Shown piece by piece: positions 13,201 to 41,305 of a stretch of 64,000 bases of DNA; position 1 is the first letter of the stretch, and each line of letters begins with the position of its first letter. Source of the DNA: Candidatus Thorarchaeota archaeon (lineage in GTDB: Archaea > Asgardarchaeota > Thorarchaeia > Thorarchaeales > Thorarchaeaceae). The stretch lies in contig JAGSHN010000023.1 of the NCBI GenBank assembly GCA_029855935.1, positions 1-64,000 on the forward strand. Direction: 5' to 3'. The position numbers and the translations under genes are program-made. The notes beneath the pieces are model-generated. The model was not told where the DNA came from and searched no databases. It saw only the letters and a list, made by a program, of their open reading frames with translations.

Positions 13201-15534
13201 CCAGTTGCCGGCAGTGTCATTGGCATAGACATAGAGCGTGTGTGGGCCATCGCCCGACATCATAAAGACGTTGTAGGGAGCGTATAGTGTGGAGTTTCCG
13301 TTGGAGTCCCAGTGATAGAGCGCCGTGTCAACGGCGACATTGTCCGTGATTGTGAGGTTGATCACAGTCCCGGATTTCAGAATGCTGCCGTCGGGTGGGG
13401 AGATCAGCTGAATGGTCGGCGCCTGTGTGTCGTTATAGAGATGCAGAACGTAGCCTTCCCAGCTACCGCCAGGTGTCGATTGGAAGCCGTCGACAATGGG
13501 CAGGTCGTCGGATGTTGTCTGGAACGTCGCAGTGATGTTGCCCGAACTGTCAACATCCAGCCCGACGACGTAGTCGTCGTAACTCCCACCGTAGTATGTG
13601 CTGAACAGCAGTGACTGGCCGTCGGAGGAGAAGCGGGTGATGACACCATCAGGACTGCCCTGTAGACTCATCAGCTCCTCACTGAGGGGATAGTCAGACG
13701 ATGAAGAGTATCCCACGACCACAGGCTCCGTGCCAAAGGCCAGATCAATGTCATACATAATCTCGTCGCCCGAGCCGCCGATATATGATGAGTAGGAGAG
13801 GGAGCCTCCACCAGAGGCGACCTTTGCTACAAATCCGTCCCGCGAACCCCCGAGCGAGGAGTCGTATGCATTGACAACGGGGAAGTCCGATGACTCAGTA
13901 TATCCGGTGACGTAGGCTGCACCCGCGGAGTCTACCACGATGGCTTTGACGTGGTCATCGTAGCCTCCTCCGACATACGATGAGTAGACGTATCCGGAGA
14001 AGTCAGACTTGATCTCAGTGACGAATCCCTCATCCCATGACGAACTCGTAGACGAGTCAAAGGCATTGAGGAGTGGAAAGTCGGTCGACAGAGTACGGCC
14101 TCCAACGTAGATGTTTCCACTGCTGTCAACATCCAGACAGTAGCCATTGTCCTCATTTGATCCGCCAAGATAGGTGGAGAAGACAAGGCCATTGCCTGTG
14201 CTGTTGAATACCGTCACAAAGGCATCACGTGATCCGTTCAAGGTGCTATCAATAGCGTTCTTCAGGTCAAAGTCAGAAGAGGCCGTTTCGCCAGTGACGA
14301 ACATTCGGCCAGTACTCCCAAGACGAATTCCCGTTGCCCAGTCGTCGCCGCTGCCGCCGAGATAGGTCGAGAACAGGATTGATGAGCCGTTGCTACTGAG
14401 CTTCACAACGACAACATCACTGCCGCCATCAAGACCTGCCTGATAGGGACTAGCTGTCGGAAAATCAGTGCTTGTTGACGAGCCGACCACGTAGACATTG
14501 CCACTGGAGTCGACAGTGATTGGTGAACCGACAGTAGCCACGTACTCGTTGCTGGAGCCTCCGATGGCCGTGCTGAACACGAGCTGGCCGTCGTATGTGA
14601 GCATTGTGACGACTATGTCCGACTGACTCACAGTCGAGTCATACGCGTTCTTGAAAGGAAAGTCGGTGGAGTACGTGTAGCCCACCGCGTATATCCCGTC
14701 ACTGGTGACGACTACGTCATTGATGTAGTCATTGGCGCTACCGCCGAGGTACGTGCTCATAGTCACAACCAGCGGATCAATCACAAGAGGCTTGTGAGGG
14801 TCGTAGTCACCCACGGCAAATCCGTACGAGTCGGCCGCAAGCTGGACAAAGTGGCTCTCGATGACGGTGGAGCCCTGCTGAACGAGCAGGCCTGACTCGC
14901 CATATGTGGGGACACCATCGCTCTCAAAGAGTATCTCATCGCCCCTGATGAGCGGATGCCCCTGACTTACCACGACCTCAATCTGAGTTGGGTCAGCACC
15001 AGGCCGGACATAGAACTCGCTCTTCAATCCGCGGTCCGTCATATAGTAGTAGAGATCGATACCATCGTAGATATTCCGATACACTATCTGGTCGAACGTG
15101 GGGATATCGGTGTACTGACGACTGCCAATGAAATAGTTGACACGATGCATCTTCTGACTCAGGCCCTCCGGCAGGGCTAGGTTGGCACCACGGAACGACA
15201 ACATCGTTGAGAACCTTCGTCCACTGTCGTCCATCCATACCAGCCGCACTGCCGACGGCAAGAATGCCACGCTGGCAGCCCGTCCCTCCAGATAATAGTA
15301 GATGTTGTCATCCGAGACCTGACCGATGTTCCTCACGAATCCACCGAATGGCAGATTGCCACCCTTGACCGACCGGACCACATCGGTCCTGACGGTGGGG
15401 CGCATCGGCATTGAGTCGACCGAGGCCGACAGGTCAGGACTAGATTCCGCAGCCGCAACACTCGCGGCTGGTGCTATTGCCATACTCGCACATAGCACGA
15501 TGACCATGAAGAGCAGAAAGAATCTGCGCAACAT
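10276..15534 (-). CDS. Giant SBBP-repeat (beta-propeller) surface protein with Ig-like repeats, Thr linker and C-terminal TM anchor
   Basis: 1752 aa. Signal peptide; FVRNIGQ...YRNIYDGIDLYY...PLVIDP N-terminal module; many STYLGGS..D / G.T.S.DFP repeats; D..PP.I.L.SP...A.D.AGN Ig-like repeats; poly-Thr; TM + KKRR. Confidence 0.9.
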   Translation of the reverse strand: MLRRFFLLFMVIVLCASMAIAPAASVAAAESSPDLSASVDSMPMRPTVRTDVVRSVKGGNLPFGGFVRNIGQVSDDNIYYYLEGRAASVAFLPSAVRLVWMDDSGRRFSTMLSFRGANLALPEGLSQKMHRVNYFIGSRQYTDIPTFDQIVYRNIYDGIDLYYYMTDRGLKSEFYVRPGADPTQIEVVVSQGHPLIRGDEILFESDGVPTYGESGLLVQQGSTVIESHFVQLAADSYGFAVGDYDPHKPLVIDPLVVTMSTYLGGSANDYINDVVVTSDGIYAVGYTYSTDFPFKNAYDSTVSQSDIVVTMLTYDGQLVFSTAIGGSSNEYVATVGSPITVDSSGNVYVVGSSTSTDFPTASPYQAGLDGGSDVVVVKLSSNGSSILFSTYLGGSGDDWATGIRLGSTGRMFVTGETASSDFDLKNAIDSTLNGSRDAFVTVFNSTGNGLVFSTYLGGSNEDNGYCLDVDSSGNIYVGGRTLSTDFPLLNAFDSSTSSSWDEGFVTEIKSDFSGYVYSSYVGGGYDDHVKAIVVDSAGAAYVTGYTESSDFPVVNAYDSSLGGSRDGFVAKVASGGGSLSYSSYIGGSGDEIMYDIDLAFGTEPVVVGYSSSSDYPLSEELMSLQGSPDGVITRFSSDGQSLLFSTYYGGSYDDYVVGLDVDSSGNITATFQTTSDDLPIVDGFQSTPGGSWEGYVLHLYNDTQAPTIQLISPPDGSILKSGTVINLTITDNVAVDTALYHWDSNGNSTLYAPYNVFMMSGDGPHTLYVYANDTAGNWASTSYTFTCDDTPPAVSLTSPTNGTVQYSGTLVQVSVSDAHLTSAYYRWSTQSSNSSWTSPYETRIPFAEGWAYLYVYASDAAGHETASVFAFGVRVDFGLLFSTYLGGGSSDSGYDIAVDLYGYAYVVGSTQGNGFPVDAYDTTHNGGLDVFVTKLDPRTSSVVWSTYVGGSGDDIGRGIFVDSDGNVYATGLTYSSDFPTVNAYDSTYSGSGSGTPDAFVLKLNSNGNGLIYSTYFGNDTTEGHAIAVDTSGQAVIVGVTNTIPVVNAYQSTSGGYSDAFVTKFNSTGNGLIFSTYLGGNGLSSDLAHSDEANDVELDGSGNIYVVGTTWSSNFPTQSANDTTLGGSSDAFVASFTGAGAIRFSTYLGGSGVEYGTGVAANIAGAVVATGRTASSDFPVVDAYQSTNGGNYDLFITRYTGSYTSLLWSTYFGGTFGAYGGDACFGADNDDVLVSGTLSDVSAPLFNAFDTVAVNSETTVLHFNSTGGMMMATYLGGSQNEYGRGIVAYPNGTALVTGETASSDFPMSRPYDDTLGGSNDAFIAEVGLDRTPPSISLNSPPDGSTRTPGTVIDLGVSDIETGVYEVLYAWDSGSNATLSSPYDLTFPTAEGLHTLDVFAEDSAGNWATASYQFTTDSTPPTITLSSPANSSVHSEPVTVDVSIGGGDVDTVLYSWDGAASQVWSAPYDTVIPSSAGQHTLSVTANDTAGNTASSTFVFYIDSDAPAIALVSPANYTFVTSSDVVSLSVTDDHLALVQFRWDTDGSNTTISPPYDIPVPAGDGERSLFVYASDDAGNEAMSRYVFRVDDHPPTVSGVDEMTVTVGASEYVSWDLSDVFPDAYSLYRNGTIVGQGPYLSPTTVQVPLSGLAAGVYNFTIVVTDQAGHSSSATTIVHVVEESTTTTTTTTTSTTTGTTTGTTTGTTSTGTTTTSTAPPSGGLDPVVIVGVVAAAGILVVVIVILVKKRRSGSSASE

Positions 15535-18274: not shown

Positions 18275-18871
18275 AATAAACTACTCGGTAGTGAACAAAG
18301 GCCTCAGAGTGTAGGAATAAACGAACGGAGAAACACGCTCGAACCACATTGCACCTTGAGATCCACCCTGTCTGTAGGATCGTCCAGCCCTCCGGTCCAT
18401 CAGCCGAATGGTATTCCAACGGGGTGCGCCGCCGTGACGAGCAGAGACAGGAGGAAGTTGTGCGATGTCGTCTAGCGTGTCCGGAACGTAGGTCCGGCAG
18501 GTGTATTCGACCCTGTCGTTCGTGATCGACAAGAGGTTTCCGTTCCGCACCTATGTCCAAACACCCGCGATGCGCCGCACATCGGCCACTGTCAATACGA
18601 TGACCGCACCACGCGCCCTCGTTCCATGCGTCGTACCCAGCAGCACGTTCTCCACAGTCTTGATGAGGGCAGGCTGCAGCGACTGGATCTTCTCACGGCC
18701 GACTGATTGGTCCCCGGAGGTAGAACGTACAACTATGCACCACGCAGCAGGGTGGCACTCTGTTCTTGGCGTAAAGTCCCGCACTCTCGTGCCAACAATC
18801 GATCTCGTGGAGTAACAGATAAATTGAGGCCACAAATGACCGCCTCAAGCAACATCAAGGAGACTAGTCCA

Positions 18872-21343
18872 ATGACCCACCACCACAGACTACATGTACG
18901 GAGACTCGTCATCTTGACGCTGCTTGTGACTATACTCTCCTCGTTCCTTGTGACAACAAGACTCAGTACAGACCCGTCGCCATTGACGGTTGACCCGACC
19001 AATACCCCAACCCGGCGGGACGCCCGTGCGACTCAGGCGATTCCAGCCATCTCGTCGGCCTATGCCACACAAGACAGCATTCTTGAACCTCGTGAGGAAT
19101 GGTCGATTGACAGTGCGAGGCAATGGTACTGGCCCGTTGTTCACGACCTGAATGGAGATGGCAACGTGGAGCTCGTCGTAGAGACTAGTGACGGCATTCT
19201 ATGTGCCAATGCCAAGAGCGGGTCAACAATCTGGACATTTGACTTTGCGAGTAGCGGTGAGATCTTGAGCAGCGACATTGCAATGGCAGATGCCAACGGA
19301 GACGGCACCAGTGACGTGATTGTTGCAATCACGGATCAGCCGCAGGACAAGGACAGACTGGTATGTATTAATGGCGGAACAGGTGAACTGCTCTGGCAGA
19401 AGCAGAACGGCGATCAAATCACATTGGTCGCGGCCTACGACATCATGGGCGATGCAGACTACGAACTCCTGGTAGGATCCGGGAACCTCTCGTGTCTTGA
19501 CGTGTCAGACGGCTCAGTGCTATGGACGGCACTCAGCGGTGTGTGGTTGTACGGTAATCCCGTGATCAGCGATTTCAACGGCGACGGTTGGACCGAGATA
19601 TATGTCCCAACCGAGAACAATCTCTACTGTCTCGGATATGACGGCTCGGTGAAGTGGAGTGCTTCCGGTGGGGGCCATGTTCCGCAGGGTGTCTTTCTTG
19701 CCGACGGTGATGAGGATGGTGAACCTGAACTCTATATGTTGTCCGATGAGATTGAGGTCCGTAGACCCAGTAGCGGCGCACTGGTCTGGAGTATCGACTG
19801 TGAGGCCTCAGCAATTGTTCCCGGAGACGTGGATGGAGACGGCCATCTGGAGGTCATCGCCTCGTCGAGCAAGACTGTCTATTGCTACAACCTCGACGAC
19901 AGAGGTTCTCTTCTCTGGTCAAGAAGGCTAACGAACAAGGCCTCAGTACCCACAATCGTGGATGTGGATGGCGATGGCGATCTGGATGTCGTGGTGGCCG
20001 AGTCTGATGGAAGCCACGTTCGTGCCCTTGATGGCAGGTCGGGTGAGGTGCTGTGGGACCTGAATGACTACTTTGGAATTCCACGCTCCGTTGTAGTTGC
20101 CCCCCGCGGTCCCAGTGAGAACGAGGACTACTTCTACCTTCTGGCCCCAACGTCGTCAGACGGACTCGTCTGTCTGAATCCTGCAACATATGGCAGGCGT
20201 GTCTTCTGGCAGAATCCGGGTGGTGTGTTTGATTGTCTTCCACTCAGAGACACGAGCGCTATTGATGCAGATGGCGACATGATGTCGGCACGTAGCGAGG
20301 TGACATATGGCACTGACCTTCTCGATGCCGACACAGACGATGACGGGCTGCCAGATGGTTGGGAGGTCTCGAACCAACTTGACCCCCTGAATGCAAGCGA
20401 TGCTGGGGACGACCCGGACGGGGACGGACTCGCCAACATCTTTGAGTACGGCAACTGCACGGACCCCACTGACCCCGACACAGACAACGACGGAATGCCG
20501 GATGGCTGGGAACTCAGCAACCGCCTTGATCCACTTAACGCAGAAGACGCGAACGATGACAACGATGAGGACGAACTCACGAACCTTGAGGAGTACCAGC
20601 TAGGTACCAACCCCCACTCCTGGGACACAGACGGAGACCTCATGTCAGACAGCTGGGAGGTTGCAAACAATCTCAATCCTCTGGTCGACGACAGTACGGA
20701 CGATCCCGACAATGATGGCGCGACCAACGGGGATGAGTACATTGCAGGTACGGACCCGCACGATAGCGACACGGATGACGATGGTCTCCTTGATGGCTGG
20801 GAGATGCAGTACGTCGGTCTGGACCCGCTTCAGCCCGGACAGGGTGATGAGGACTCGGACTCTGACGGCCTGACGAACCTACAGGAGCAAGACGCGGGAA
20901 CGAATCCGAACAGACCAGACACCGACAACGACCACTGTCCGGATGGCTGGGAGATTGCCCACGACCTTGATCCACTCGACCCTGACGACGGCGCTGAGGA
21001 CACGGACTCAGACGGCCTGATCAATTCGCTCGAATACGACTATGGCACTGACCCGAGGGACGCCGACACCGACGGCGACACAATGCCTGATGGTTGGGAG
21101 GTCCAGTTTGGCCTAGACCCCACTGACCCCACAGTCGGCGATGCGGATGGTGATATGCTTGACGACAGTCAGGAGTTCGCTCTCGGCTCCTTGCCCAACT
21201 GTTCAGACACTGACGGCGATTTCGCTCCTGACGGTCTCGAGGCTATGATCTCTCTATCGCCCACCAACCCCAATGACTTCAGAATCGTCATGGGCATACT
21301 CGTTGTCGTAATGATTGGAGTTGTGTGGAAGAGAAGGCGGTGA
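18872..21343 (+). CDS. Surface protein: FG-GAP/PQQ-like propeller plus tandem acidic Ca-binding (TSP3-like DxDxDGxxDxWE) repeats, C-terminal TM + KRRR
   Basis: ORF 18707..21343; likely start MTHHHRLHVRRLVILTLL at 18872. DLNGDG/DANGDG/DVDGDG repeats, then many DTDxDGxPDGWE / GTxP repeats. Confidence 0.85.
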   Translation: MTHHHRLHVRRLVILTLLVTILSSFLVTTRLSTDPSPLTVDPTNTPTRRDARATQAIPAISSAYATQDSILEPREEWSIDSARQWYWPVVHDLNGDGNVELVVETSDGILCANAKSGSTIWTFDFASSGEILSSDIAMADANGDGTSDVIVAITDQPQDKDRLVCINGGTGELLWQKQNGDQITLVAAYDIMGDADYELLVGSGNLSCLDVSDGSVLWTALSGVWLYGNPVISDFNGDGWTEIYVPTENNLYCLGYDGSVKWSASGGGHVPQGVFLADGDEDGEPELYMLSDEIEVRRPSSGALVWSIDCEASAIVPGDVDGDGHLEVIASSSKTVYCYNLDDRGSLLWSRRLTNKASVPTIVDVDGDGDLDVVVAESDGSHVRALDGRSGEVLWDLNDYFGIPRSVVVAPRGPSENEDYFYLLAPTSSDGLVCLNPATYGRRVFWQNPGGVFDCLPLRDTSAIDADGDMMSARSEVTYGTDLLDADTDDDGLPDGWEVSNQLDPLNASDAGDDPDGDGLANIFEYGNCTDPTDPDTDNDGMPDGWELSNRLDPLNAEDANDDNDEDELTNLEEYQLGTNPHSWDTDGDLMSDSWEVANNLNPLVDDSTDDPDNDGATNGDEYIAGTDPHDSDTDDDGLLDGWEMQYVGLDPLQPGQGDEDSDSDGLTNLQEQDAGTNPNRPDTDNDHCPDGWEIAHDLDPLDPDDGAEDTDSDGLINSLEYDYGTDPRDADTDGDTMPDGWEVQFGLDPTDPTVGDADGDMLDDSQEFALGSLPNCSDTDGDFAPDGLEAMISLSPTNPNDFRIVMGILVVVMIGVVWKRRR
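20260..21270 (+). repeat. Intragenic tandem acidic DxDxDG..D.WE / ..TN.EEY..GTDP repeats
   Basis: Visible in the translation of 18872..21343. Confidence 0.8.
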
Positions 21344-21574
21344 CAGTACTCGGCACTCGTGCAGTTCACTAGCCCCACGACGGGTAGACCGGCAACAAGG
21401 TCAGGTCGGAACACAACATACAGACCTCAGACCGGATCTCGGGTCGAAGTACGGACTGCCGACAAGCATATGTCGCTCCAGATGGGTCGCTCGTGCCTCC
21501 GTTGGCTGAAGCAAGTGGGCCAGTGGCGCAGATGATGCAGCCACCGTAGGGAGGAGAGGTCTCCCCCGCCCAAC

Positions 21575-21730
21575 CTAGTTCCGTTATGCCCCGTTCTCAG
21601 CGGACGACGCCAGCAGATGACACCTGCTCCAACGCGCCACTCGGGACACAGGAACATGCTCCTGGGAGGCGTTATGAACGGCAGGCCGGGAGAGGGGCTA
21701 TCCACCGGCGTCATCCGGCCGAACTACTCA
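21575..21730 (-). ncRNA. Putative unannotated structured RNA (~150 nt)
   Basis: Arms 21601-21618 and 21700-21717 form an 18-bp helix whose 4 non-Watson-Crick positions are all G-U on the minus strand; internal hairpin CAGGA..TCCTG; TATA-like box ~25 nt upstream. Confidence 0.6.
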
Positions 21731-21734
21731 CGCA

Positions 21735-21777
21735 GCGTCGTCCCGGCTCTGTATATAAGGGGAACATGGGACGACGC
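21735..21777 (-). promoter_or_regulatory. TATA-like box (CTTATATA on minus) flanked by a perfect 10-bp inverted repeat GCGTCGTCCC-N23-GGGACGACGC
   Basis: Arms at 21735-21744 and 21768-21777; TATATAAG at 21752-21759 (plus). Confidence 0.55.
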
Positions 21778-21807
21778 CGAGGGTTCCAGAGTTTACTTCC
21801 CGCGGAC

Positions 21808-23280
21808 TCAGGCACCAAGACTGAGGATATCATTGGTGAGGAAGCTGTCGCGCAGGGAGAGGAGTCTGTCAACGATGAGCCCATTCTCGGTGTTGACCCG
21901 GAAAGACAGCGCGGATGAGGTCCTACGACTCTGCAGATAGAGTATCAGTCTCAGATTTCGGAGTGTCTCCAGAGTGGGTCCGGGGACGGGGTAGAGATCC
22001 GACCTCCTTACCCGCTCATATCGGCGCCGTGTACTCGCCACAAGATTCGAGGCCCCTCTCTCAATCTGGTTGGCCGTCCTAGCTCCCAGCAGCTCGTCGG
22101 CAATCCGATATCTCTGTGGGTCCATCTCCACAAGATAGTCATCACGAAGAAAGGCAAGCGCGAGGTAGTCGAGAACTGTGAGCATGGGGCCACCTATCTC
22201 AAGTTTGGCGGTATCAGAATGCCCCTGCCTGAAGTATGACGTTATCGCTCCCCGGAGATCTGGCGCCACATCAGCAAGGACAAGCACTTCTCTGACAGAC
22301 AGCGACTGAACAAAATCACGCACCTCTCTCTTGAGCTTCTTGAATCTCTCCAGCAGGCGTAGCCGATTGGCCACCTCAGAGTAGACGTGTCTCTGGTACG
22401 ATGAGGCAAGCGCATTCTCGTAGAAGTCTACCCGCACAGAATACTTGAGAGGATTGAGCGAATAATAGAGGGACTGAAGGAGATCACGGACCTTCACCAT
22501 AGACGAGTCCCCACTGGTGCGGAGAAGATTCCAGATGGCAGGAATGGAGTTCCTGTGAGCAAAGGCTAGTAAGGCCGCGTCAGTGACCCGTCTCTCAAAC
22601 TCTCGGGATATATGGGGTCGTATGACTATGCTCATAGTGTGCAGCCCCGGGAAGGACACCTCAATCTTTGAGAACGGCTCAGCCCCGGCCGCCACCTTGG
22701 TTCGATGGGCAAACACTTCGACTCTCTCGGTGGGAGAGAACCTCCGGCCTACTCTCAGACGCCCGACGAACAACAGTTTCTCAATGGATCGCTTGACCAG
22801 TCGAAGACGGGAGTTGAACTCACTATGCAGAGTTCCCAGCCAAGACTCATCCACCAGATACGGACCATTCGGAGAGATCTGGAGTCGGTACTCTGCGAAG
22901 AGGGAAGGATAGAGACGAACAGACCACACCAGATCAAAGTGCTCTGCGCCGACGGTGTCGTGTTGGATCTTCTTGGCCACGAGCGGCATCGGCATTCTAT
23001 ATGAGACATAGTAGTCATCACATATGACTCGGTAGTGAAGAGATCTGCACAGGTTTCGCCCTCGGAGAGGCCACCTCAGCCTCCCGACGCCGTGTACGAA
23101 TAGTCGCTCGTCGAGTCTGGCCGTGCCTCGAAGCACCCCTTCAAACTTCCTCCACAGTCGTTCCCGCCATCCGAGAAACGACAGCTCAGGCCGGAGACGT
23201 TCTCGCTCAAGGACCATCTCAGGCAATGCGATTGAGGCTGAGAGTACTACCCTCTGTCGATCCCTAGGGTCCAAAGTCAT
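21808..23280 (-). CDS. Hypothetical basic (Arg-rich) protein, 490 aa, no recognisable family
   Basis: Long ORF overlapping the upstream wHTH gene by 17 nt (translational coupling). Confidence 0.8.
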   Translation of the reverse strand: MTLDPRDRQRVVLSASIALPEMVLERERLRPELSFLGWRERLWRKFEGVLRGTARLDERLFVHGVGRLRWPLRGRNLCRSLHYRVICDDYYVSYRMPMPLVAKKIQHDTVGAEHFDLVWSVRLYPSLFAEYRLQISPNGPYLVDESWLGTLHSEFNSRLRLVKRSIEKLLFVGRLRVGRRFSPTERVEVFAHRTKVAAGAEPFSKIEVSFPGLHTMSIVIRPHISREFERRVTDAALLAFAHRNSIPAIWNLLRTSGDSSMVKVRDLLQSLYYSLNPLKYSVRVDFYENALASSYQRHVYSEVANRLRLLERFKKLKREVRDFVQSLSVREVLVLADVAPDLRGAITSYFRQGHSDTAKLEIGGPMLTVLDYLALAFLRDDYLVEMDPQRYRIADELLGARTANQIERGASNLVASTRRRYERVRRSDLYPVPGPTLETLRNLRLILYLQSRRTSSALSFRVNTENGLIVDRLLSLRDSFLTNDILSLGA

Positions 23281-24796
23281 CTGTCATCACACGCCACTTT
23301 CCCTCGTCTGCATCCCAACGGGAAACGGGCAGCTTCCATCCGAAGAGATGATAGCTTCCGTGATAGCTGAGCAGGCAGTCTTCTTCCTGAAACTTCATTC
23401 GCACGTCCTCAAATATCCATCTGGCATATTGGGCCGGGACCTTGGCGATGACCGTGCTGAGGCCGTTCGTTGCTCTCTGACAGTAGAGCTCAGGCAGGAA
23501 GGAGAGAGCCCGACAGATGCGCCGATAGAGTGAGACGTCGCTGTTGTGAATGACGAGGAAGAGCGAACCGGGAGCGTAGACGGTGGTAGCAACCACCCTC
23601 TCCCACAGGATACCCCTTGAGCGTAGGTCGGCCACGATTCCCAACACGGTATTATACTTCCGGCCGACCTTCCGCCTTATGTCCCTCACCGAGGTCAGAC
23701 CTTTGTTCAGGATGGCATCGATGACGGCCAGATAGCTCTCGTCCAGCACGAAGCCCTCAAGGTCGAGCTGGCGTCCAGTCAACTGCACAGGCGGCGGGTT
23801 CTCGAACGCGTCCTGTAGTCTCCTATGGAATGTCTCAAAGACCGCCCACTGCGAACCGTCAAACAGGTCATAGTCGATATTCGCCCAGCATAGGCTCTCG
23901 TCCCGCTCCCCCGCGGTGACTCTCACGACCCCCGGTGCGTCGGCAAGGCTCTCAAGCCACATCCTGCCCTCTCTGAACGGTGACCACCAGCGCGGTACAA
24001 CTATGTTCACAAGGGCAAAGCTCTCCCCGGTTGATGTCCGAAGGACGTTGTAGAGCCAGGGATTCTGTTTCCCTAGATATGGAGGCAGGCGCGTCGAGTG
24101 ATCCTCAAGCTCAAGAGCCATTATGACCGTCTTCAGCCCGATGCCCGCATACGAGACAGTCGGTATCGTCCACAGGACTCCCCGCCGTCGGAGGTTGTTC
24201 AGTACTCTTGAGACATAGCCCTTGGAGGTCCCGAGCCGAGCCGCAAGCCTCTGCGGCGAGACTGTCTGGTACGCGAGTGCGGTGCGAAATACCAGAAGGG
24301 TGCTCTGGGATAGTGTCGGAACGCGCTCAGACCGGAACTCAAACAGGTCTTGAATGAACAGTTCCCTGAAGGCAGGCCCAGCCTCCTCAATTCGCCTCTG
24401 ATACATCTCGCGCATCCTGTCGAACGCATCTCGAAATCCAAGGAGAGAACGATATACGAATGGTGGGCGATAGACGCGGCCATCGCCGTAGTCGCGTTCG
24501 CGAGAGGTCGCGGCCCACAGCTCCTCCCACCGACCAAGATCGCACTCGGGAAGTGCAAGCAACTCGGACAGCATCTGCTCAGTCCGGAAGCACACAAGAT
24601 CCCACGCAATGGTTCCCGGATACGCGCCCATCTCACGGGCGAGCTCACCTGCGGCCTCGGCGACCGCCTGAATCTCTAGCCGCTTCTCGGGCCAGATGTC
24701 GACAAGCGAGCTCACCATATCCTCAATGGCCATACGTTTGAACGGGGCCCCCGCACGAATCGGAATTCCCGTCCTTGGTTCGTCGCCAGCGGGCAT
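23264..24796 (-). CDS. Tandem Lrp/AsnC-like winged-helix regulator (two HTH + RAM-like modules)
   Basis: HTH1 SPQRLAARLGTSKGYVSRVLNNLRRRGVL followed by Lrp-type linker VSYAGIGL; HTH2 LDESYLAVIDAIL...SVRDIRRKVGRKYNTVLGIVADLRSRGIL. Confidence 0.75.
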   Translation of the reverse strand: MPAGDEPRTGIPIRAGAPFKRMAIEDMVSSLVDIWPEKRLEIQAVAEAAGELAREMGAYPGTIAWDLVCFRTEQMLSELLALPECDLGRWEELWAATSRERDYGDGRVYRPPFVYRSLLGFRDAFDRMREMYQRRIEEAGPAFRELFIQDLFEFRSERVPTLSQSTLLVFRTALAYQTVSPQRLAARLGTSKGYVSRVLNNLRRRGVLWTIPTVSYAGIGLKTVIMALELEDHSTRLPPYLGKQNPWLYNVLRTSTGESFALVNIVVPRWWSPFREGRMWLESLADAPGVVRVTAGERDESLCWANIDYDLFDGSQWAVFETFHRRLQDAFENPPPVQLTGRQLDLEGFVLDESYLAVIDAILNKGLTSVRDIRRKVGRKYNTVLGIVADLRSRGILWERVVATTVYAPGSLFLVIHNSDVSLYRRICRALSFLPELYCQRATNGLSTVIAKVPAQYARWIFEDVRMKFQEEDCLLSYHGSYHLFGWKLPVSRWDADEGKWRVMTDDFGP

Positions 24797-24926
24797 TTTC
24801 CTGTTCGTATTGTGGAAGGAGGGGCCTATTACATCTTCTGATTCTCGACGGACTAGCTAATCGAATTCCCGGGCCAGTGGTTGTCGGGCGACATTGGTCG
24901 TCCACAACAGAACGGAGGTGAATGGA

Positions 24927-24974
24927 GTGAATCCAGGAGATCCTTGGCCAATTCCTCCGTGGCGCCCGGCGTAA
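24927..24974 (+). CDS. Putative 15-aa Pro/Trp-rich peptide MNPGDPWPIPPWRPA
   Basis: Perfect SD GGAGGTGA (24914-24921), GTG start 5 nt later, TAA stop, then a hairpin + T12 terminator. Below the ORF-track cutoff. Confidence 0.5.
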   Translation: MNPGDPWPIPPWRPA

Positions 24975-24993
24975 GAACCGGCGTTGGCGGAGC

Positions 24994-25045
24994 GTCGAGG
25001 GACAGCACCCCGGCTGGCCCCGACATCTCTCTCTTTTTTTTTTTT
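24994..25045 (+). terminator. Hairpin + poly-T terminator
   Basis: GTCG-A-GGG-A-CAGC/GCTG-G-CCC-CGAC stem (24994-25024), followed by TCTCTCTC and 12 T (25034-25045). Confidence 0.65.
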
Positions 25046-25061
25046 CTGAGTCTCGGCGCAG

Positions 25062-25198
25062 GCGGAGACCAAGGTGGTGCCGAGGAGGCCCAGTTGAACC
25101 AGGCCTCTGCCCCCAGACATCCGGCTGCCCGGCCGCGGGGTTGATGCCCGCAGGGTCGCCAGACATGACAGGGGCAACACCATCTACCTAGTCTCCGC
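25062..25198 (-). ncRNA. Putative unannotated structured RNA (~137 nt, three-way junction)
   Basis: Closing helix 25062-25071/25189-25198, nested helices GCCCC/GGGGC, UCUGGC/GCCGGA, UGCGGG/CCCGCG and hairpin GAGGCCUGGU/ACUGGGCCUC; many G-U pairs only on the minus strand. Confidence 0.55.
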
Positions 25199-25319
25199 GC
25201 GCGTATTTCAGTATTGCGAGAACACCGATCCGAGGCCCTCCCTGCACCTCTTGCAAGTATGAATTGAGAATCGCCCTCAGTACGGCGGACGGAGAGTCCT
25301 AGGTGACCGGACCACTATG

Positions 25320-25782
25320 TCCGATCAAGTATCATCATCCCATTCGTGACCGTTACCAGATCAACACGTGGGATAGTTGGACTATTGCGACCGATGTAAG
25401 CAAGACCTTCGACAATCAAATTGGTACTGATGAAGCGACTCACATAGTCTCTGCAGGATGGGCAGCAGTTTTCGCAGCAATCGGAGCATCTATTGGAAAC
25501 CTGATCGAGCCAGGCGGAGGAGCGGTATTTGGTGCCTTTTCTGGACGGCGTACTTTGTGGTCTACTTGGCTGTGCAACTCAAGCCCAGCTCTATGATGAG
25601 GAGGGATGCATTTGGTGGTGTTGGGGCAAGGCATTTAGTGATTGGTTTTCTGCAACGCATGGTGGTTGGTACTTTGGCCACAGTATGGATTGCCAATTGC
25701 TGCTGCAGCATTTCTCGCGACGGACTACTTACAAATTGGTGACTGCACATCTATTGACGCACCAAGGTCGGGAAATCCATAG
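25320..25782 (+). pseudogene. Frameshifted C-terminal remnant of a glycine-zipper (bacteriocin/pore-former-like) protein
   Basis: Three frames join: ...GWAAVFAAIGASIGNLIEPGGGAVFGAF / LDGVLCGLLG...LYDEEGCIWWCW / NAWWLVLWPQYGLPIAAAAFLATDYLQIGDCTSIDAPRSGNP*. Confidence 0.55.
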
Positions 25783-25815
25783 TAAGATCAGAAGAAGAAC
25801 TGGAGTCGGGATCAA

Positions 25816-26235
25816 ATGGGTGTCAAAGAAAAGACAAAGATCATCTACATTCTGATGGGCAGGGTCTTCATGTTGATCGCTCTGGCATTGGAGATTGTCG
25901 TCTTTCTACTGCAGAGCACTCCGGACCATTCTACGGGATTCTGGGTGCCATATGTCATTTCTGTGCTAATTGACACGGGATGCATCACTTTGGCAAGTGA
26001 ATGCATATCTCGACATGGTCCTATCGACTCAAGAACTATTCTAGTTGTTCTAGCTGCATCCCTAACATTCGCGATTTTTGTGTTTCACTTTTCTAATGAG
26101 CTTCATGCGGTATTTTATCCCAGAACAATTCTTCCCGGTCTCCTGATGATTAATAGTGGAGGAGTCTTTCTGTTTGGAATAGGTTTGCTTATTTCTGGTA
26201 GAAGCTACGGAGAACGTATCTCAACAACCGCATAG
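25816..26235 (+). CDS. 4-TM membrane protein, immunity-like
   Basis: 139 aa, four TM, immediately downstream of the toxin-like remnant; lower GC. Confidence 0.7.
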   Translation: MGVKEKTKIIYILMGRVFMLIALALEIVVFLLQSTPDHSTGFWVPYVISVLIDTGCITLASECISRHGPIDSRTILVVLAASLTFAIFVFHFSNELHAVFYPRTILPGLLMINSGGVFLFGIGLLISGRSYGERISTTA

Positions 26236-26341
26236 AACCTAAAGCCGATGTTGCACAAGGGGGAAGATCAGCCCAGATGGTAGTTGATGCTGTGGCCACA
26301 GCTTGGAATGGTGATTGATGTCTGCGGAACTACTAGCTATA

Positions 26342-26397
26342 GGTAGCCTGCGAATCGGCAACAACAGATTTGATGCCCTCGTGCTATGAATCCCTAA
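26342..26397 (+). pseudogene. Second orphan C-terminal tip homologous to the end of the 25320-25782 remnant
   Basis: GSLRIGNNRFDAL-(1-nt slip)-AMNP* vs YLQIGDCTSIDAPRSGNP*. Confidence 0.45.
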
Positions 26398-26509
26398 GCG
26401 AAATCGGAGCGCTAGATTGATGGTTATTGGAGCACGATTCTATCGATAGGATACTTTACAGCTGGTGCTCGTACTTCCTGCAGAGTTGGGACAGAGAACT
26501 CGTAGAGCA

Positions 26510-26950
26510 ATGGTGGATGTGATGAACAAGAGAAGTATCAGTTTCTCCAGCAATGGTCGAAGGATTCTCTTGTGGACGGGACTGGTTTCTCTAGCACTTG
26601 TGGCAGCTGTGCATTGGTACATATCTACACTTCGGACCTCTGGTATTGGGTTTGGGACCATCTGCATTGTCTTGATACTTTCACTAGGTTGGTCCGTCTT
26701 TCTTCCATTGGCACACGTCTCGAATAGGGAAGATGTTACCAGATTGGCACTGGCCCTTATCCTGATCGGAACAATCTTCATGGTGGGGGGACTCTGGTCT
26801 CATAGCGCTCTGGAGATCTATCTGGCGCCCTACGACCTGCTGGCGACTTTTCTTGTCCTTGACAGTATGTTTGTGGTCCTCTCTGGTGTTCTCTTGCTTG
26901 AATTCAGGCACGGGAGAGATCATCTACTAGATAAGGAACAATGCTGCTGA
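26510..26950 (+). CDS. 4-TM membrane protein, probable paralog of 25816..26235
   Basis: ORF 26465..26950 (likely start MVDVMNK). The C-terminal pattern P.xLL..FLVLDS..V.LSGVLLL matches P.xIL..LLMINS..VFLFGIGLL. Confidence 0.7.
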   Translation: MVDVMNKRSISFSSNGRRILLWTGLVSLALVAAVHWYISTLRTSGIGFGTICIVLILSLGWSVFLPLAHVSNREDVTRLALALILIGTIFMVGGLWSHSALEIYLAPYDLLATFLVLDSMFVVLSGVLLLEFRHGRDHLLDKEQCC

Positions 26951-27496
26951 GACAAAGGTTCCGAGGGATAGAGCCCATCGACCACTCCGAAGCGGCTGTC
27001 AGTGAGAGAGTCTACCCCGACTATGACGGCTACTTTGGCAAGATGGAGCAGTAGCATTTTGCAGTGGAGATTCAGTCAAGCGGCACCGAGGAGGGAGACG
27101 TCCTGACAATCACCGTCTTCTTCGAGGACCACCGAGTGCTGAGCAGATCCTCTACGGACGTGATGCTAACAATCTGAGAGCACACTTGGATCTTCGAGAA
27201 ACAGGCCTGCCGTGTCACAATCTACCCCAAGAGTTCAGTTAGTGTAGACTCCTCATTGATTGGCGATGCAGGGCTATAGGTGTCAGTGTCGGGCGACATC
27301 GGTCGTTCATTATTGGCCACAGGCGAGCGGAGAGAATTCAGGCAGTTCTTAGCCTAGGCCTCTGGCGTCTGGTGTCGAATCTAGCATTGGCGAAACAAAG
27401 GACGGCGTGCCGGCCTCTGTGATGGCTGATGACCTTTGTTCAATCACAGGGACCTCGGGGCATAGTCTAGCTTGGGTTCTTCCCATCAGAATTGTT

Positions 27497-27703
27497 GTGG
27501 CGACCACGACTACAATCAAGAAGGACGCAAATGAAGTGCTCCGGACTCTGGAAGGTGACAAGGACTGGGATAGATTCCTCAAAGAACTTGCGGAGAGCTA
27601 TTTGACAACAAGAAGAGAGAGAACGAGGGAGAAGTTGAAGGGGCCTTTGGCTGGGGAATTTGAAGACGTAAGGGTGAAGAGGTGGACGAAGGAGTATTGG
27701 TAG
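27497..27703 (+). CDS. VapB-like antitoxin
   Basis: Short ORF (M)ATTTTIKKDANEVLRTLEGDKDWDRFLKELAE..., overlapping a PIN-domain start. Confidence 0.55.
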   Translation: MATTTTIKKDANEVLRTLEGDKDWDRFLKELAESYLTTRRERTREKLKGPLAGEFEDVRVKRWTKEYW

Positions 27704-27725
27704 ATACTGATGTCTTGACAGACAA
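27682..27725 (+). pseudogene. Truncated VapC/PIN toxin N-terminus
   Basis: GTG-DEGVLVDTDVLTD is a PIN first-strand motif; similarity is lost where the convergent MNT-HEPN gene ends. Confidence 0.5.
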
Positions 27726-27739
27726 CACGGCCGCGAGAC

Positions 27740-28603
27740 TCACCCTTCATTCATGTCTGCAAGATCAATGACTGCATTCACGAATCTCGATATGTCATCG
27801 AGTTCCTCATCGATGAGCTTGAACACAAGGGCATTGTCAATCCTCGAATACAGGTGCACAAGCCTGTGACGAAAGCGAACCATCGACATCATTCTTCGTG
27901 CCAAGTCCTCGTCAATCAGTCCTCTGTCGCGAAGAATCTGAAAGATATCAACATAGCTTGTTGGTCTGCCCAGCTTCCTTGCTGACACCAAGTGGCCCGC
28001 CATATCGATGCACGACTCTATTGCGAGATGAAGAGCTCGCTCTGCCATCAACCGGGTCTCCAGTGAGGCGAAGTACGCATTCAAACCCCCCTCCCTGACG
28101 CGCGTGAGTACGTCCAGTGCCTGCTCTGTGATGGAGATTCCTGAAACCAGCATATCTGGATCAATCATCCTTCGCAGCCGCCCAGCAAAGCGTCGGACCA
28201 TATGCCTATCGTACATCATCCAGATGCGCTGCATCTCATCATACTCGTCCCACGTACGACGCTCGAATTCTGCTCTCAACATAGGATCCCGGTCAAGAAA
28301 GAGGATGCCACGTCTCACGACGTTGTTTCTGAGCGCCACGTCGGCGTGGTTCAGACACACGACGTCAATCCGCGAAGAGCCGAGGGCCTCTGATATGCGG
28401 ATTGTGAGTTCCCTTGTCATCTGCAGGCAGACATCTGGAGAAGAGTCGTTCAGGAGAATGGCGACGTCTATGTCACTCATCGGTGTTGCTTCGCCGGACG
28501 CAACCGACCCGAACAGATAGGCCGCCGTCACTCTCTCCTCGCGCCCAAGCACCCTCTTGATAACAGCGAGTATCCATTCTACCTCCGATAGCATCACTAG
28601 CAA
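27740..28603 (-). CDS. Fused MNT nucleotidyltransferase - HEPN/DUF86 protein
   Basis: N-half LFGS-VASGEATPMS-DID; C-half ERALHLAIESCIDM...RHRLVHLY, in one 287-aa frame. Confidence 0.85.
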   Translation of the reverse strand: MLVMLSEVEWILAVIKRVLGREERVTAAYLFGSVASGEATPMSDIDVAILLNDSSPDVCLQMTRELTIRISEALGSSRIDVVCLNHADVALRNNVVRRGILFLDRDPMLRAEFERRTWDEYDEMQRIWMMYDRHMVRRFAGRLRRMIDPDMLVSGISITEQALDVLTRVREGGLNAYFASLETRLMAERALHLAIESCIDMAGHLVSARKLGRPTSYVDIFQILRDRGLIDEDLARRMMSMVRFRHRLVHLYSRIDNALVFKLIDEELDDISRFVNAVIDLADMNEG

Positions 28604-30785: not shown

Positions 30786-31545
30786 GACTGGATCTTGTGC
30801 GGCTGATTACTTCGACTATCCGGCATTCTGGGATTTAAGTCGTTCTGGTGCGGCATCATCTTCAATGCAGACGCCTCTTGCACCAGTGCTGGGTACCTCC
30901 GCAATGCCACACTTGAGAATCGTGATGCATAGCCAGTAGTCTTGGAGCCCGCTGACTATATGACATATCAATCACGACTCTCCCGGGGGCGTTGTTGTCG
31001 GACGTCTACCCAGTGCGTAAGGTAGCGGCCTCGGCCCGGCAGACGACACAGGTCTCGCCCTGTTCTTTCAACTTGTGGCGAGCTGCCCATCTTCTTTGCG
31101 GCCATTCGTCTTGACGAGTGAGGACCACTTCTTGAACACTATGATTGGAGCCCTCCTGACTCAGCTAGTCGGTGCGCTATGGCTCAGTCTACTTGGAGAC
31201 TCATTGTCCCGCGATGCGACTATTTTCACAGTGGCTAGTGGGCCTGTTCTGCCTGCCAGATTGGCCTACATAGCAAACTGTGCCTCAAAGATGAGTGAAC
31301 GGTACGAACTATCGGCATACATCTAAGCCAGGGATAGCAGAAACTAATGTGATGTAGGCACTCCCTCTTCACCTTTGCGCTGAACTGAGAACCCTGCCAG
31401 AAACAGACGGTTCAGTGTTCGATTCGAACATTGCGGTGTCGTGCTGCTACGAGTTTCGCGAGAGATTGCAAAAACGGTAGTGTGACTATTGCCCTTGAGC
31501 TCTCTTAGAACATCTTCTTATCCGAATTCTGTTTCCTGCAGAGCT

Positions 31546-32817
31546 ATGGGGAAACGGGATATCAAGAGAGCGACCACAGAATGGCGCAACAAGAGGTTCG
31601 AGGGCATCAGACGCGACATTCCCTATCATCTCATAGAGGAGATCACGACCTTGGTCGGACCGCGGCGGGCCGGGAAGACGTACTTCATGCTCCAGATCTC
31701 AAATGACCTCTTGCGTAAGTTCGGAAAGGAAGATATGGTGTATGTGGACTTTGAGGACCCTCTGTGTCGAGTGAGCTATCCTGAGTTTCTTGACGTACTC
31801 GATGATCTCATTCCCCATCGTGGTGTCCTGTTCCTTGATGAGATACAGTCAATCGATGACTGGCCCTCCTGGTTGCGGGGACTACACAATATGCGTCGCT
31901 TTCACATCTTCGTGTCCGGTTCGAGTTCAAGACTATTGAGCCGTGAGATCGCTACCAGTCTGCGGGGACGTAGCATCACAAGGGTGGTCTTCCCGTTCAG
32001 CCCCGGTGAGATACTCCATCACGAGGGGGCGACCGGACGACGTGCACTCGCAGCCCTTCACCGGTACCTTGAGTGGGGAGGCTTCCCACGTGTCTATCTC
32101 TCCTCGGACTCTCCGAACAGGAAAGATCTGCTGGAGTCGTATGTGGATGCCATCTTCTTCCGGGATGTGGTTGAGCGCCACCGAGTTCGTGACATCGAAG
32201 GGGCGCGCATATTCCGAAACCTGGTAATGAAGAATCTTGCCCAGATATTCTCGGTCACAAAGGCAGCAAGATTTCTCAAGAGCATAGGTATCAGCAAGAG
32301 CAAGAAGACACTCATGGAACTGCTTGAGCTGTTCCAAGAGGCCTTCCTCATCTTCGCCCTGCCGCGCTACTCAAGATCCGCTAGGGGGATTCTCCAGATG
32401 CCCAAGAAGGTCTATCCCGTCGATGTTGGTCTGTTTCAGCCCTTCACCAGTTTTGGGGAATCCATGACTCGAAGACTGGAGTCCGTCGTTGCGATACATC
32501 TCTACAAGCAACACCTCCGCACCGGACGCCGAATATACTACTGGCAAGACCACCGGCAGAACGAGGTGGACTTCGTTGTTGAGAGCCGCAAGGGCATCGA
32601 GGAACTCATCCAGGTCTCCTATGACGTGAGTGATGAGAGGACCAGAGAGCGAGAAGAACGCTCGCTGATCAAGGCCTCAAGGGAACTCGGCTGCAAGAAC
32701 CTCACGGTTGTCACTTGGGACCACACGGACACATCCGAGAGGGACGGTAGAACAATACAGTTCATCAGGCTTCTCGACTGGATAGTTGCGACGAAAGGCC
32801 CCAATCCGGATGCCTGA
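31546..32817 (+). CDS. AAA_14 ATPase with C-terminal DUF4143 (PD-(D/E)XK-like) domain
   Basis: GPRRAGKT, LFLDEIQ, VSGSS, LRGR, YLEWGGFP, KKVYPVDVG, EVDFV...IQVS. The ORF track starts at 31489. Confidence 0.9.
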   Translation: MGKRDIKRATTEWRNKRFEGIRRDIPYHLIEEITTLVGPRRAGKTYFMLQISNDLLRKFGKEDMVYVDFEDPLCRVSYPEFLDVLDDLIPHRGVLFLDEIQSIDDWPSWLRGLHNMRRFHIFVSGSSSRLLSREIATSLRGRSITRVVFPFSPGEILHHEGATGRRALAALHRYLEWGGFPRVYLSSDSPNRKDLLESYVDAIFFRDVVERHRVRDIEGARIFRNLVMKNLAQIFSVTKAARFLKSIGISKSKKTLMELLELFQEAFLIFALPRYSRSARGILQMPKKVYPVDVGLFQPFTSFGESMTRRLESVVAIHLYKQHLRTGRRIYYWQDHRQNEVDFVVESRKGIEELIQVSYDVSDERTREREERSLIKASRELGCKNLTVVTWDHTDTSERDGRTIQFIRLLDWIVATKGPNPDA

Positions 32818-38342: not shown

Positions 38343-38346
38343 CTCT

Positions 38347-40825: not shown

Positions 40826-41305
40826 CTAGCCAATCAACGTGAATCCGTCAAAGATACTGCAGCCGCAAGGTACTATCCGCAAAGGGAAACTAGGCGTTCC
40901 CAGAATCCTCTTTACCAGAGACAAGTTATTCGCAACAAAATCGCATATGTTCTGTGGGAGAACCAATATGTGACGGTAGTTGGGATTTCTCACGCCCATG
41001 CAGTCCAGCAACCCACCAAGAAATCCTTCAGTTTCCTTGAACTTGCTATCAAGACTGCGGATGGCTTCAGAAAAGGTTGATTCCTCAGCAATGTTCTTGA
41101 GTTCCACCAGGAATGCGGTGCATTTGTCATCCTCGAACATAACGTAGACTACATCGCAATGGGCCAAGTGCATTCTCCCAAGTTCCGCGTACTTCTCGAA
41201 GTTGAGAACCAGAAAGGGCAGACCGCCCTTGAGGATGATTTTGCAGTCATTCTCTTCATACTCGGCTTCCATTCTCGGCCCATTCGTCGTCCCCGGCACG
41301 TTCAT
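40826..41305 (-). CDS. Small putative PD-(D/E)XK-type nuclease, partner of the upstream ATPase
   Basis: HCDVVYV...FLVELKN pattern; overlaps the ATPase stop. Confidence 0.6.
   Translation of the reverse strand: MNVPGTTNGPRMEAEYEENDCKIILKGGLPFLVLNFEKYAELGRMHLAHCDVVYVMFEDDKCTAFLVELKNIAEESTFSEAIRSLDSKFKETEGFLGGLLDCMGVRNPNYRHILVLPQNICDFVANNLSLVKRILGTPSFPLRIVPCGCSIFDGFTLIG

Follow-up and report, generated by a model that had tools for sequence, protein, structure and literature searches.

The window examined here, a stretch of 64,000 nt from a Candidatus Thorarchaeota archaeon (contig JAGSHN010000023.1 of assembly GCA_029855935.1), contains a conserved cassette that, judging from the comparison of related loci, consists of three parts: a putative small RNA with a micro-open reading frame (micro-ORF), a divergently oriented gene for a protein of 510 aa and, overlapping the latter, a gene for a protein of 490 aa. 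We report the conservation of this cassette, the co-occurrence of its parts, the coding-type substitution pattern of the micro-ORF, the fold assignments of the proteins and the linkage to cas genes. The cassette is known so far from Asgard archaea alone. The original prediction, made from the letters of the window and the translations of its open reading frames, was that a divergent Pro/Trp micro-ORF led by a Shine-Dalgarno (SD) sequence should recur beside the gene pair, and that its absence from homologous pairs would speak against the whole idea. This expectation was borne out: the micro-ORF is present in every one of the 18 loci found where the DNA upstream of the first gene of the pair (the 510-like gene or, in genome G052, the 490-like gene) is readable. 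In the window, the cassette comprises the following features:

21808-23280, minus strand: 490-aa ORF, overlapping the 510-aa ORF by 17 nt
23264-24796, minus strand: 510-aa ORF, divergent from the micro-ORF
24797-24913, no strand assigned: shared divergent control region of 117 nt, with CCTATTA and a TAGCTAATCGAATTCCCGGG block
approximately 24880-25045, plus strand: putative small RNA of roughly 170 nt, with the SD, the 15-codon ORF and a T12 run
24880-24908, plus strand: 5′ hairpin of the putative small RNA (predicted fold)
24914-24921, plus strand: SD GGAGGTGA, a perfect 8 nt, 5 nt before the GTG
24927-24974, plus strand: micro-ORF, GTG start, 15 codons plus TAA, peptide MNPGDPWPIPPWRPA
24975-25045, plus strand: two 3′ hairpins and the T12 run (25034-25045), the likely end of the small RNA

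Occurrence of the cassette

The trio was found in 16 loci from Thorarchaeota and Heimdallarchaeaceae. The 510-like gene precedes the 490-like gene in all loci of the Thor family, the two genes overlapping or abutting, and the same gene order occurs in 10 Heimdall loci (including those of G060, G072, G074, G059, G069 and G051, inspected in detail). In G052 the micro-ORF, encoding MLAPDLPDDPDPFPP, is divergent upstream of the 490-like gene, and a 510-like gene was not detected. Two more loci, from a single genus (G028 and G048), also keep the 490-like gene with no 510-like gene detected, and their micro-ORF, encoding ..PPVWPPNDP[EA]PWPP, is set apart from the start of the 490-like gene, elsewhere at the edge of the locus. 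The proteins of the cassette diverge to about 15-25 % identity and, even so, the peptide core and the GGAGGTGA site are kept, with synonymous changes in third codon positions. An Rfam search of positions 20500-28000, with E values up to 1, gave no match, and a tRNA search of the window found none. Among public sequencing runs, the stretch was present in one only, a hydrothermal-vent metagenome that is probably the origin of the assembly.

Conservation of the micro-ORF peptide

The first clue was a weak blastn match between the window and the congeneric genome G002 that falls exactly on the micro-ORF, the alignment showing an identical peptide core written with different codons. The conserved core is P-G-D-P-x-P-I-P-P-W, and homologs of the micro-ORF adjoin 510-like genes in 15 loci besides that of the window. 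A degenerate DNA pattern for P[GD]DPxP[IV]PPW was found in six of 400 Asgard genomes, with one match each, all of them 114-161 nt from the start of a 510-like gene, and the reversed control gave none. In a collection of 185,579 species the same pattern occurred in 29 places, five of which are Thor loci already known; the remaining matches, in bacterial and mostly GC-rich genomes, were judged to be due to chance, none of them adjoining a 510-like gene. The matches in bacteria and in high-GC metagenomes are mostly situated within longer high-GC frames, and none combines a short ORF with an SD and an adjoining 510-like gene; the only viral match lies inside an ORF of 2137 aa and was also attributed to chance.

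A metagenome scan added two contigs: L066, which resembles that of G001, and one of 31 % GC with a 510-like protein of just 26 % identity, whose micro-ORF still encodes MWPPEDPNPIPPW. The micro-ORF of G010 (MYRPPDDPSPIPPF) was recognized by manual inspection, having been missed by the pattern; in it, the W of the core is replaced by F. No other Thor-type locus was missed. Each of the six Heimdall loci with a 510-like gene has an SD-led short ORF 134-185 nt upstream of it, encoding MFYPPEDPDEPEFWPP or one of three variants of it, MKGPIEFPPDDPEPWPP or MKKDYYLPPPEDDEPNDPEPFPFP, and the peptides of the Heimdall set end in Pro-Pro-stop in all but one case (that of G051, which ends in FPFP-stop). 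Across loci the ORF has 12-24 codons and the core can be written as acidic-Pro-x-Pro-aromatic/Ile-Pro-Pro, ending in PPW or PP-stop.

The substitutions are of the coding type. Among nine Thor-type sequences the third position varied in all nine conserved codons, the first position in one and the second in two, and pairwise codon differences amounted to 168 synonymous versus 39 non-synonymous, a count that is partly ascertained because six of the nine sequences were found with a pattern that fixes positions 1 and 2. The peptides are acidic (pI 4-5.6) and contain 33-46 % proline, with no hydrophobic stretch. All 18 have at least one of PPW, PPD, PPG, PPN, PPE, PPP or a Pro-Pro-stop ending, and PPW, PPD, PPN and PPG are among the PPX tripeptides with the highest pause scores (PMC13602936). 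L066, whose 510-like protein does not differ from that of G001 in its first 117 aa, has CTG at the start position where G002 has GTG, and an in-frame GTG inside the SD; it has either an unusual start or is an impaired copy.

Signals around the micro-ORF

The site GGAGGTGA, or a near-perfect variant of it (GGAGGTG, GAGGTGA), is found 3-10 nt before the start codon in all loci, L074 having GGTGA only. Such sites are rare before genes in the genome of the window, in which 27 of 154 GGAGGTGA sites precede an ORF of at least 60 aa. The 5′ hairpin has a counterpart of different sequence at the same 5′ position in G002. After the ORF, a structured region followed by a T-run was found in nearly all related loci with downstream sequence (the contig of G340 ends just past the ORF and was excluded from this comparison); the exceptions are G028 and G048, with a T-run and little or no hairpin, and G069, which is structured and has no T-run within 130 nt. 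The stop codon and the start of the hairpins are 28-104 nt apart. In four loci linked to type I-D cas genes the two hairpins are homologous, with compensatory double changes in six of 15 predicted pairs; with four sequences this covariation is suggestive and not statistical. The 3′ hairpins of the window cannot be aligned to these, and its predicted small-RNA fold was not significantly more stable than those of shuffled sequences (z -1.67). A CCUCC within the ORF that could occlude the SD is present in only about four of 15 loci, since the Pro codons drift.

The distance from the start of the 510-like gene to the SD is 114-185 nt in all loci. In the window, a CCTATTA sequence at 24825-24831 lies about 30 nt before the start of the 510-aa ORF, a spacing that suggests a leaderless mRNA for this gene, and the TAGCTAATCGAATTCCCGGG block is situated ahead of the small RNA. 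A further motif of the control region, CCTATTAT/C, recurs in G002 and G014, and the arrangement AATTAGCT..GGGAGTTTC recurs in five loci. These motifs may have promoter and operator roles.

The two protein families

An AlphaFold2 (AF2) model of the 510-aa protein, built from an alignment of its relatives, had a mean predicted local distance difference test score (pLDDT) of 84 and a predicted template modeling score (pTM) of 0.79. The model has an N-terminal helical domain (residues ca. 24-158) followed by two modules (164-307 and 353-479), each made of a winged helix-turn-helix (wHTH) and, after it, an alpha/beta, RAM-like part (beta-alpha-beta-beta-alpha-beta). Its best match in Foldseek was the fused siroheme decarboxylase NirDL (4ch7, E 1.5e-8, probability 1.0); each half also matched single Lrp/AsnC proteins, and more than 15 Lrp/AsnC structures were matched with a probability of 1.0. 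At the level of the predicted fold, the protein is thus a fused tandem Lrp/AsnC-like pseudo-dimer, and the earlier description of it as a tandem Lrp-like wHTH protein, made from the translation, was right. It shares with NirDL/AhbAB the presence of two wHTH plus RAM-like modules in one chain, and differs from NirDL and Lrp in an extra N-terminal helical domain of 150 residues, in its non-metabolic context and in its low identity to the structural matches (about 10-19 %). A Pfam search detected no AsnC_trans_reg or Lrp ligand-domain match, only weak ones to MarR_2, TrmB and HTH_24, at or around the cut-offs. The second wHTH weakly resembles that of CasR/Csa3 (E 7e-5 to 2e-4). Homologs were found in Thor- and Heimdall-archaea, the Heimdall copies being 21-26 % identical to the best-matching Thor query, and the family has many invariant Trp, Tyr and Phe residues (W65, F70, W94, Y109, Y115 and W317).

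The 490-aa protein was also modeled with AF2 from an alignment of relatives (pLDDT 84, pTM 0.76). Residues 352-484 form a winged helix, and the protein is strongly basic (pI 10.1), as is the family without exception (pI 9.3-10.1). It had no match in Pfam, and its N-terminal 350 residues gave no convincing match in the Foldseek PDB, VIA-wide, ESM-Atlas shape, BFVD, Atlas feature and PDB sequence-profile searches, which is no proof of a new fold. A word-indexed search with the single sequence retrieved only the protein itself. The original prediction had called it an orphan; this does not hold, because a profile matched 44 cluster representatives among 1.84 billion proteins and 24 of 400 Asgard genomes, mainly in two families, that of the window (8 of 86 genomes) and one with Heimdallarchaeaceae members (13 of 31). 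Whole-genome searches found a 490-like gene in 7 of 40 relatives.

The 510 and 490 families are absent from Pfam, NCBIfam and PADLOC. They were considered as paralogs of each other and this was rejected, with a hhalign probability of 0.3 %. Neither matches a known enzyme of ribosomally synthesized and post-translationally modified peptides; they are the only conserved genes beside the ORF, and residues 1-350 of the 490-aa protein have no assigned fold.

Linkage to CRISPR-Cas loci

The cassette recurs beside CRISPR arrays and type I-D and I-B cas operons, a position that is not in the original prediction. In seven to eight loci, about half of those that could be classified, it is flanked by a CRISPR array on one side and by type I-D or I-B cas genes on the other; these counts come from fragmented metagenome-assembled genomes and related genomes and do not represent independent samples. 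In the four type I-D-linked loci (G014, G012, G015 and G010), the genes cas10d, csc2, csc1, cas3′ and cas6 are situated downstream of the 490-like gene, on the same strand, and a CRISPR array lies beyond the micro-ORF. Repeats ending in ATTGAAA[GC] are here assumed to give the transcribed orientation of an array; on this basis, the micro-ORF points toward the array in G014, G015 and G010, and the array of G012 is convergent. The order in G051 is array, 490-like gene, 510-like gene, divergent micro-ORF and cas6-cas8b-cas7-cas5 (type I-B), with the ORF, its hairpins and the T-run about 140 nt upstream of cas6-cas8b-cas7 and on the same strand. In G052 the 490-like gene heads an operon of cas8b-like, cas7, cas5 and cas3 genes, beside a type III-A locus; G028 has a type I-B locus with three arrays, and the locus of G048 is beside an array. 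A role of the 490-like protein as a substitute for Cas6 was rejected because cas6 is present in the type I-D loci and in the type I-B loci of G028 and G051.

The distance from the stop codon of the 490-like gene to the start of cas10d is constant, 91-102 nt (about 95), in the four type I-D loci (L013, 7484-7582; L014, 7659-7760; L015, 4143-4237; and L016, 9432-9522), and a conserved promoter or some small element could be located there.

Type I-D loci are known to carry toxin-antitoxin and regulator "cargo" upstream of cas10d (10.1101/2023.03.03.530964). The two proteins resemble these cargo regulators and Csa3/CasR in being wHTH proteins at the head of cas operons. Unlike Csa3/CasR, the 510-like protein has no CARF domain and a different architecture, is partnered by a micro-ORF and also occurs away from cas genes.

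In the window, a tblastn search for cas remnants beside the gene pair found none, and the genome, a 97 %-complete assembly, has no type I-D genes, neither csc2 nor cas10d being found. Its nearest CRISPR-Cas genes on the same contig (C29) are at least 80 kb from the cassette, with arrays from about 106.7 kb, then type III-D genes and then type I-B genes with cas1. This region (106.6-135.5 kb, loci L127 and L128) comprises two loci, one type III-D-like and the other type I-B (cas6-cas8b1-cas7-cas5-cas3, with cas1 close by). Contigs C20 and C28 of the same genome carry arrays with repeats similar to those of type I-D in G015.

Possible function of the cassette

CreT RNAs are made of an SD, a mini-ORF and a hairpin, the haloarchaeal ones sequestering tRNA (PMC8501985); the type I-F CreT of P. 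aeruginosa depends on two Pro codons that immediately precede the stop, while the hairpin serves only to stabilize the RNA, whatever the spacing (bioRxiv 10.64898/2026.06.02.729485). The cassette shares with CreT the strong SD, the very short ORF, the stable hairpin downstream, the consecutive Pro codons at or near the stop and the variable spacing between hairpin and ORF, as well as, in seven to eight loci, a position at CRISPR-cas loci with the array on one side and the effector genes on the other. In the window, the putative small RNA combines the SD GGAGGTGA, a 15-codon ORF, hairpins and a T-run, with counterparts in the 17 related loci. By analogy, we tentatively propose, with a probability of about 0.4, that the cassette encodes a ribosome-stalling small RNA similar to the CreT "proline-codon toxin", controlled by the 510 and 490 proteins in place of the CreA guide.

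In this proposal, a short RNA would start near 24880 and stop at the T12 run, and its strong SD would load it heavily with ribosomes. These would stall on the Pro-rich nascent chain, which is composed almost wholly of poorly translated sequences (PPD, PPG, PPN or PPE, then PPW or Pro-Pro-stop), or at termination, and the transcript would thereby be a growth-arresting small RNA of the CreT type. The 510 and 490 proteins, encoded in a divergent operon whose genes would be translationally coupled, may bind the shared promoter region of 114-185 bp and repress the small RNA, as a protein stand-in for the CreA-Cascade repressor, and may also regulate their own operon; both contain winged helices and the 490 family is basic (pI 9.3-10.1), which gives them DNA-binding potential. 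Where cas10d or cas8b follows directly, they would head the cas operon. The whole would act as a toxin-antitoxin-like addiction or abortive module, often guarding CRISPR-cas loci and able to live alone, as here. We infer transcription, stalling, toxicity and repression alike from the features described above.

Several observations weigh against this proposal or set the cassette apart from CreT. The ORF has 12-24 codons instead of the 5-6 of CreT and its amino-acid sequence is conserved, whereas the described CreTs conserve no peptide. Residues other than proline (Asp, Ile/Val and Trp/Phe) are kept among peptides whose accompanying proteins are about 15-25 % identical, and such conservation is explained no less well by a sequence-specific arrest peptide or by a functional peptide. 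The Pro-Pro-stop ending is not universal, since in the window and in G002 the ORF continues 3-9 codons past PPW. The conserved partner is a pair of proteins and not a creA, which would be a degenerate repeat-spacer-repeat: when a creA-like degenerate repeat was sought near the micro-ORF of six loci, the best repeat matches were at the level of shuffled sequences (16-21 of 37), and the sole real match, in G014, was to the opening repeat of an array. The hosts are Asgard archaea, and about half of the loci lie away from cas genes, seven having no adjoining cas genes (those of the window, of G001 and of G002 and four loci from a single Heimdall genus). Additionally, NirDL, which is structurally closest to the 510-aa protein, is an enzyme and not a regulator, and loss of the toxin gene would also remove the repressor genes, so that an addiction effect would need a difference in stability. 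With no repeat-like creA and a conserved peptide sequence, the cassette is not counted as a member of CreTA. Nor does it match a type I toxin-antitoxin system, in which a small hydrophobic membrane peptide is paired with an overlapping antisense RNA: the peptides are acidic and non-hydrophobic, CCUCC is present in only about four of 15 loci and no conserved antisense element was found in 85 family genomes.

The conservation of the peptide is what would be typical of an arrest peptide, and the micro-ORF could then be a cis-acting leader, with the 510 and 490 proteins as ordinary regulators of the divergent promoters. The length of the pause would report the activity of aIF5A, the supply of Pro-tRNA or the health of translation (e.g., during virus infection), and would set either the readthrough past the hairpin and T-run, into a CRISPR leader and array or into cas6-cas8b, or the half-life of the RNA. 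The cassette resembles arrest and poly-Pro leader peptides (SecM, TnaC, ErmBL; the poly-Pro ones dependent on EF-P, PMC5021804) in its short, conserved, PPX-rich ORF followed by hairpins and a T-run, and known slow-translating motifs are present in all 18 peptides. In bacteria, poly-Pro leader peptides are coupled to terminators (PMC5021804), and poly-Pro stalling is known to be modulated by upstream context (PMC4176338). The orientation of the micro-ORF toward the array in G014, G015 and G010, and toward the cas6-cas8b-cas7 genes in G051, is in line with such a sensor. However, the content downstream of the micro-ORF is not conserved: the array of G012 is convergent, neither cas genes nor an array follow in the window, in G002 or in the four Heimdall loci of a single genus (g36), and the micro-ORF is coupled to a divergent operon of two genes, not to a cistron downstream. 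Besides, the hairpins, 28-104 nt past the stop, are too distant to be melted by a stalled ribosome, and the first repeat lies about 490-1040 nt past the T-run, which means that the arrays probably have a leader promoter of their own. We regard a sensor or attenuator as doubtful, though worth weighing beside the CreT-like toxin.

Conservation at the amino-acid level with synonymous drift also agrees with a peptide that functions after its release. The original prediction had such a peptide sensed by the Lrp-like ligand domains of the 510-aa protein, an idea that is weakened by G052 (and, in rearranged form, by G028 and G048), where the micro-ORF and the 490-like gene are kept and a 510-like gene was not detected. 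Its nearest surviving form is that the released peptide of 12-24 aa binds one or both of the 490 and 510 proteins and thereby closes a feedback loop, whether as ligand, co-repressor, anti-repressor or third subunit. The strict co-occurrence of the micro-ORF with the 490-like gene, also where the 510-like gene is absent, argues in favor of this, and the acidic peptides (pI 4-5.6) would complement a basic partner (pI 9.3-10.1). RAM domains of Lrp/AsnC proteins are ligand-binding modules, proline-peptide binding sites are typically lined by aromatic residues, and the 510 family has invariant aromatics. On the other hand, all that is conserved in the peptide is also known to promote stalling, neither a leader nor an export signal is present in it, Lrp-type pockets take amino acids and not peptides, and the Lrp-like protein is dispensable in some loci. 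A functional micropeptide is unlikely in our estimation.

A combination of these ideas would be an archaeal device of a new kind, in which an arrest peptide reports on translation status (aIF5A, proline supply or viral shut-off) and is read by two proteins of new families, one of them recognizing the nascent or released peptide, to switch CRISPR-Cas or dormancy; this we hold to be decidedly unlikely.

Flanking structured RNAs and membrane ORFs

The features that adjoin the cassette on both sides in the window are:

21575-21807, minus strand: RNA A, a GC-rich structured stretch directly after the stop codon of the 490-aa ORF
25048-25302, minus strand: RNA B, a GC-rich structured stretch, tail-to-tail with the small RNA
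25303-26950, plus strand: low-GC stretch (GC 0.41-0.50) with a frameshifted Gly-rich ORF and two orphan ORFs with four transmembrane segments (4-TM)
25816-26235, plus strand: first 4-TM ORF, four hydrophobic segments
26465-26950, plus strand: second 4-TM ORF, four hydrophobic segments

The original prediction counted these features as part of its circuit. In such a wider circuit, RNA A and RNA B would be partner RNAs, forming a ribonucleoprotein with the 490-aa protein or acting as antisense, and the module would govern a bacteriocin/immunity cassette made of glycine-zipper and 4-TM genes. In comparison with dinucleotide shuffles, RNA A had z values of -2.6 on the minus and -1.0 on the plus strand, and RNA B of -3.45 and -1.45, respectively. 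Their folding on the minus strand only is thus upheld, and their recurrence with the gene pair is not, searches of the related loci, of 85 family genomes and of the window's own genome having found no homolog. RNA A had no homologs in its own genome or in these 85 genomes, and RNA B gave only chance-level matches in the latter; no sequence similar to a CRISPR repeat was found in RNA B. In relatives, the 490-like gene is followed by cas10d after about 95 nt or by unrelated genes, and RNA A is most simply a 3′ untranslated region or a terminator region between convergent genes. If transcribed past 25048, RNA B would be antisense to the micro-ORF RNA.

The low-GC stretch proved to lie outside the conserved unit, which agrees with the reservation, already made with the original prediction, that the right-hand part may be an unrelated neighbor. 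The 4-TM ORFs have no paralogs and are absent from all related loci; a relationship between the two proteins was rejected (E 0.57), and the 161-aa ORF, the only one of them searched in this way, had no homolog among 5.8 billion proteins. The glycine zipper comes down to a single weak match to PSM-beta (E 0.04), and the bacteriocin/immunity cassette is left without evidence, its 4-TM ORFs being orphans, unrelated to each other and missing from the related loci. A toxin or immunity role of the 4-TM stretch is neither supported nor excluded.

In favor of the wider circuit are the strand-specific folding of both RNAs, the tail-to-tail position of RNA B with respect to the micro-ORF RNA, with no T-run of its own there, and the basic nature of the 490 family. 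Against it, neither the RNAs nor the membrane ORFs recur in the 17 other loci, in the 85 family genomes or elsewhere in the same genome, the 4-TM proteins are unrelated to each other and lie in a stretch of foreign, low GC, and RNA A has the position of a 3′ untranslated region between convergent genes. This non-conservation largely refutes the wider circuit, which we consider highly improbable.

A decayed copy of the 5′ hairpin and micro-ORF region was identified at 27287-27375 (69 % identity over 91 nt, E 0.03), with the SD lost and an in-frame stop. Together with the intact copy (24882-24972) it brackets RNA B and the low-GC orphan ORFs, and the two copies could have arisen from an old duplication or an insertion.

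Genomic neighborhood

The cassette is situated in a variable island with an MNT-HEPN fusion, a PDC-S01-type ATPase and further defense-like genes. Comparison with congeneric genomes, in search of the borders of an insertion, revealed no synteny around the cassette, the region being hypervariable. The ORF at 27740-28603 (minus strand) combines in a single chain an MNT nucleotidyltransferase and a HepT-like HEPN RNase; in G001 and G002, MNT and HEPN are encoded by two genes (33-35 % identical) close to the gene pair. An ATPase with AAA_14 and DUF4143 domains, at 31489-32817 (plus strand), strongly matches the PADLOC candidate defense family PDC-S01 (E 1.6e-91); it is among the few stretches between 14 and 33 kb with a DNA-level match in congeners, and the only one with a match in all four. 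At 37818-42989 (minus strand) there are a protein with a SocA/Panacea antitoxin domain, overlapping a protein with HD and HD_assoc_2 domains, and an AAA_15/AAA_21 (AbiEii-type) ATPase. The island is flanked by genes for two giant surface proteins, one at 10276-15534 (minus strand), with beta-propeller/SBBP and Ig-like domains, and the other at 18707-21343 (plus strand), with a PQQ/FG-GAP propeller, bacterial TSP3 repeats and a C-terminal transmembrane anchor.

Implications

The cassette is a very compact three-gene Asgard unit built from sequences that are all annotated as hypothetical, and its 15-codon ORF, spotted by eye, was validated through comparative genomics alone. It brings to light two protein families whose genes repeatedly head type I-D and I-B cas operons, one of them with a domain of 350 residues whose fold is unrecognizable. 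A literature search found no description of an archaeal arrest peptide; should the micro-ORF encode one, it would apparently be the first candidate for a ribosome-arrest peptide in archaea, in organisms whose translation apparatus, with aIF5A, is eukaryote-like. If the CreT-like proposal is true, proline-codon RNA toxins that guard CRISPR-Cas would extend from Pseudomonas to archaea, with protein regulators replacing the CRISPR-like guide.

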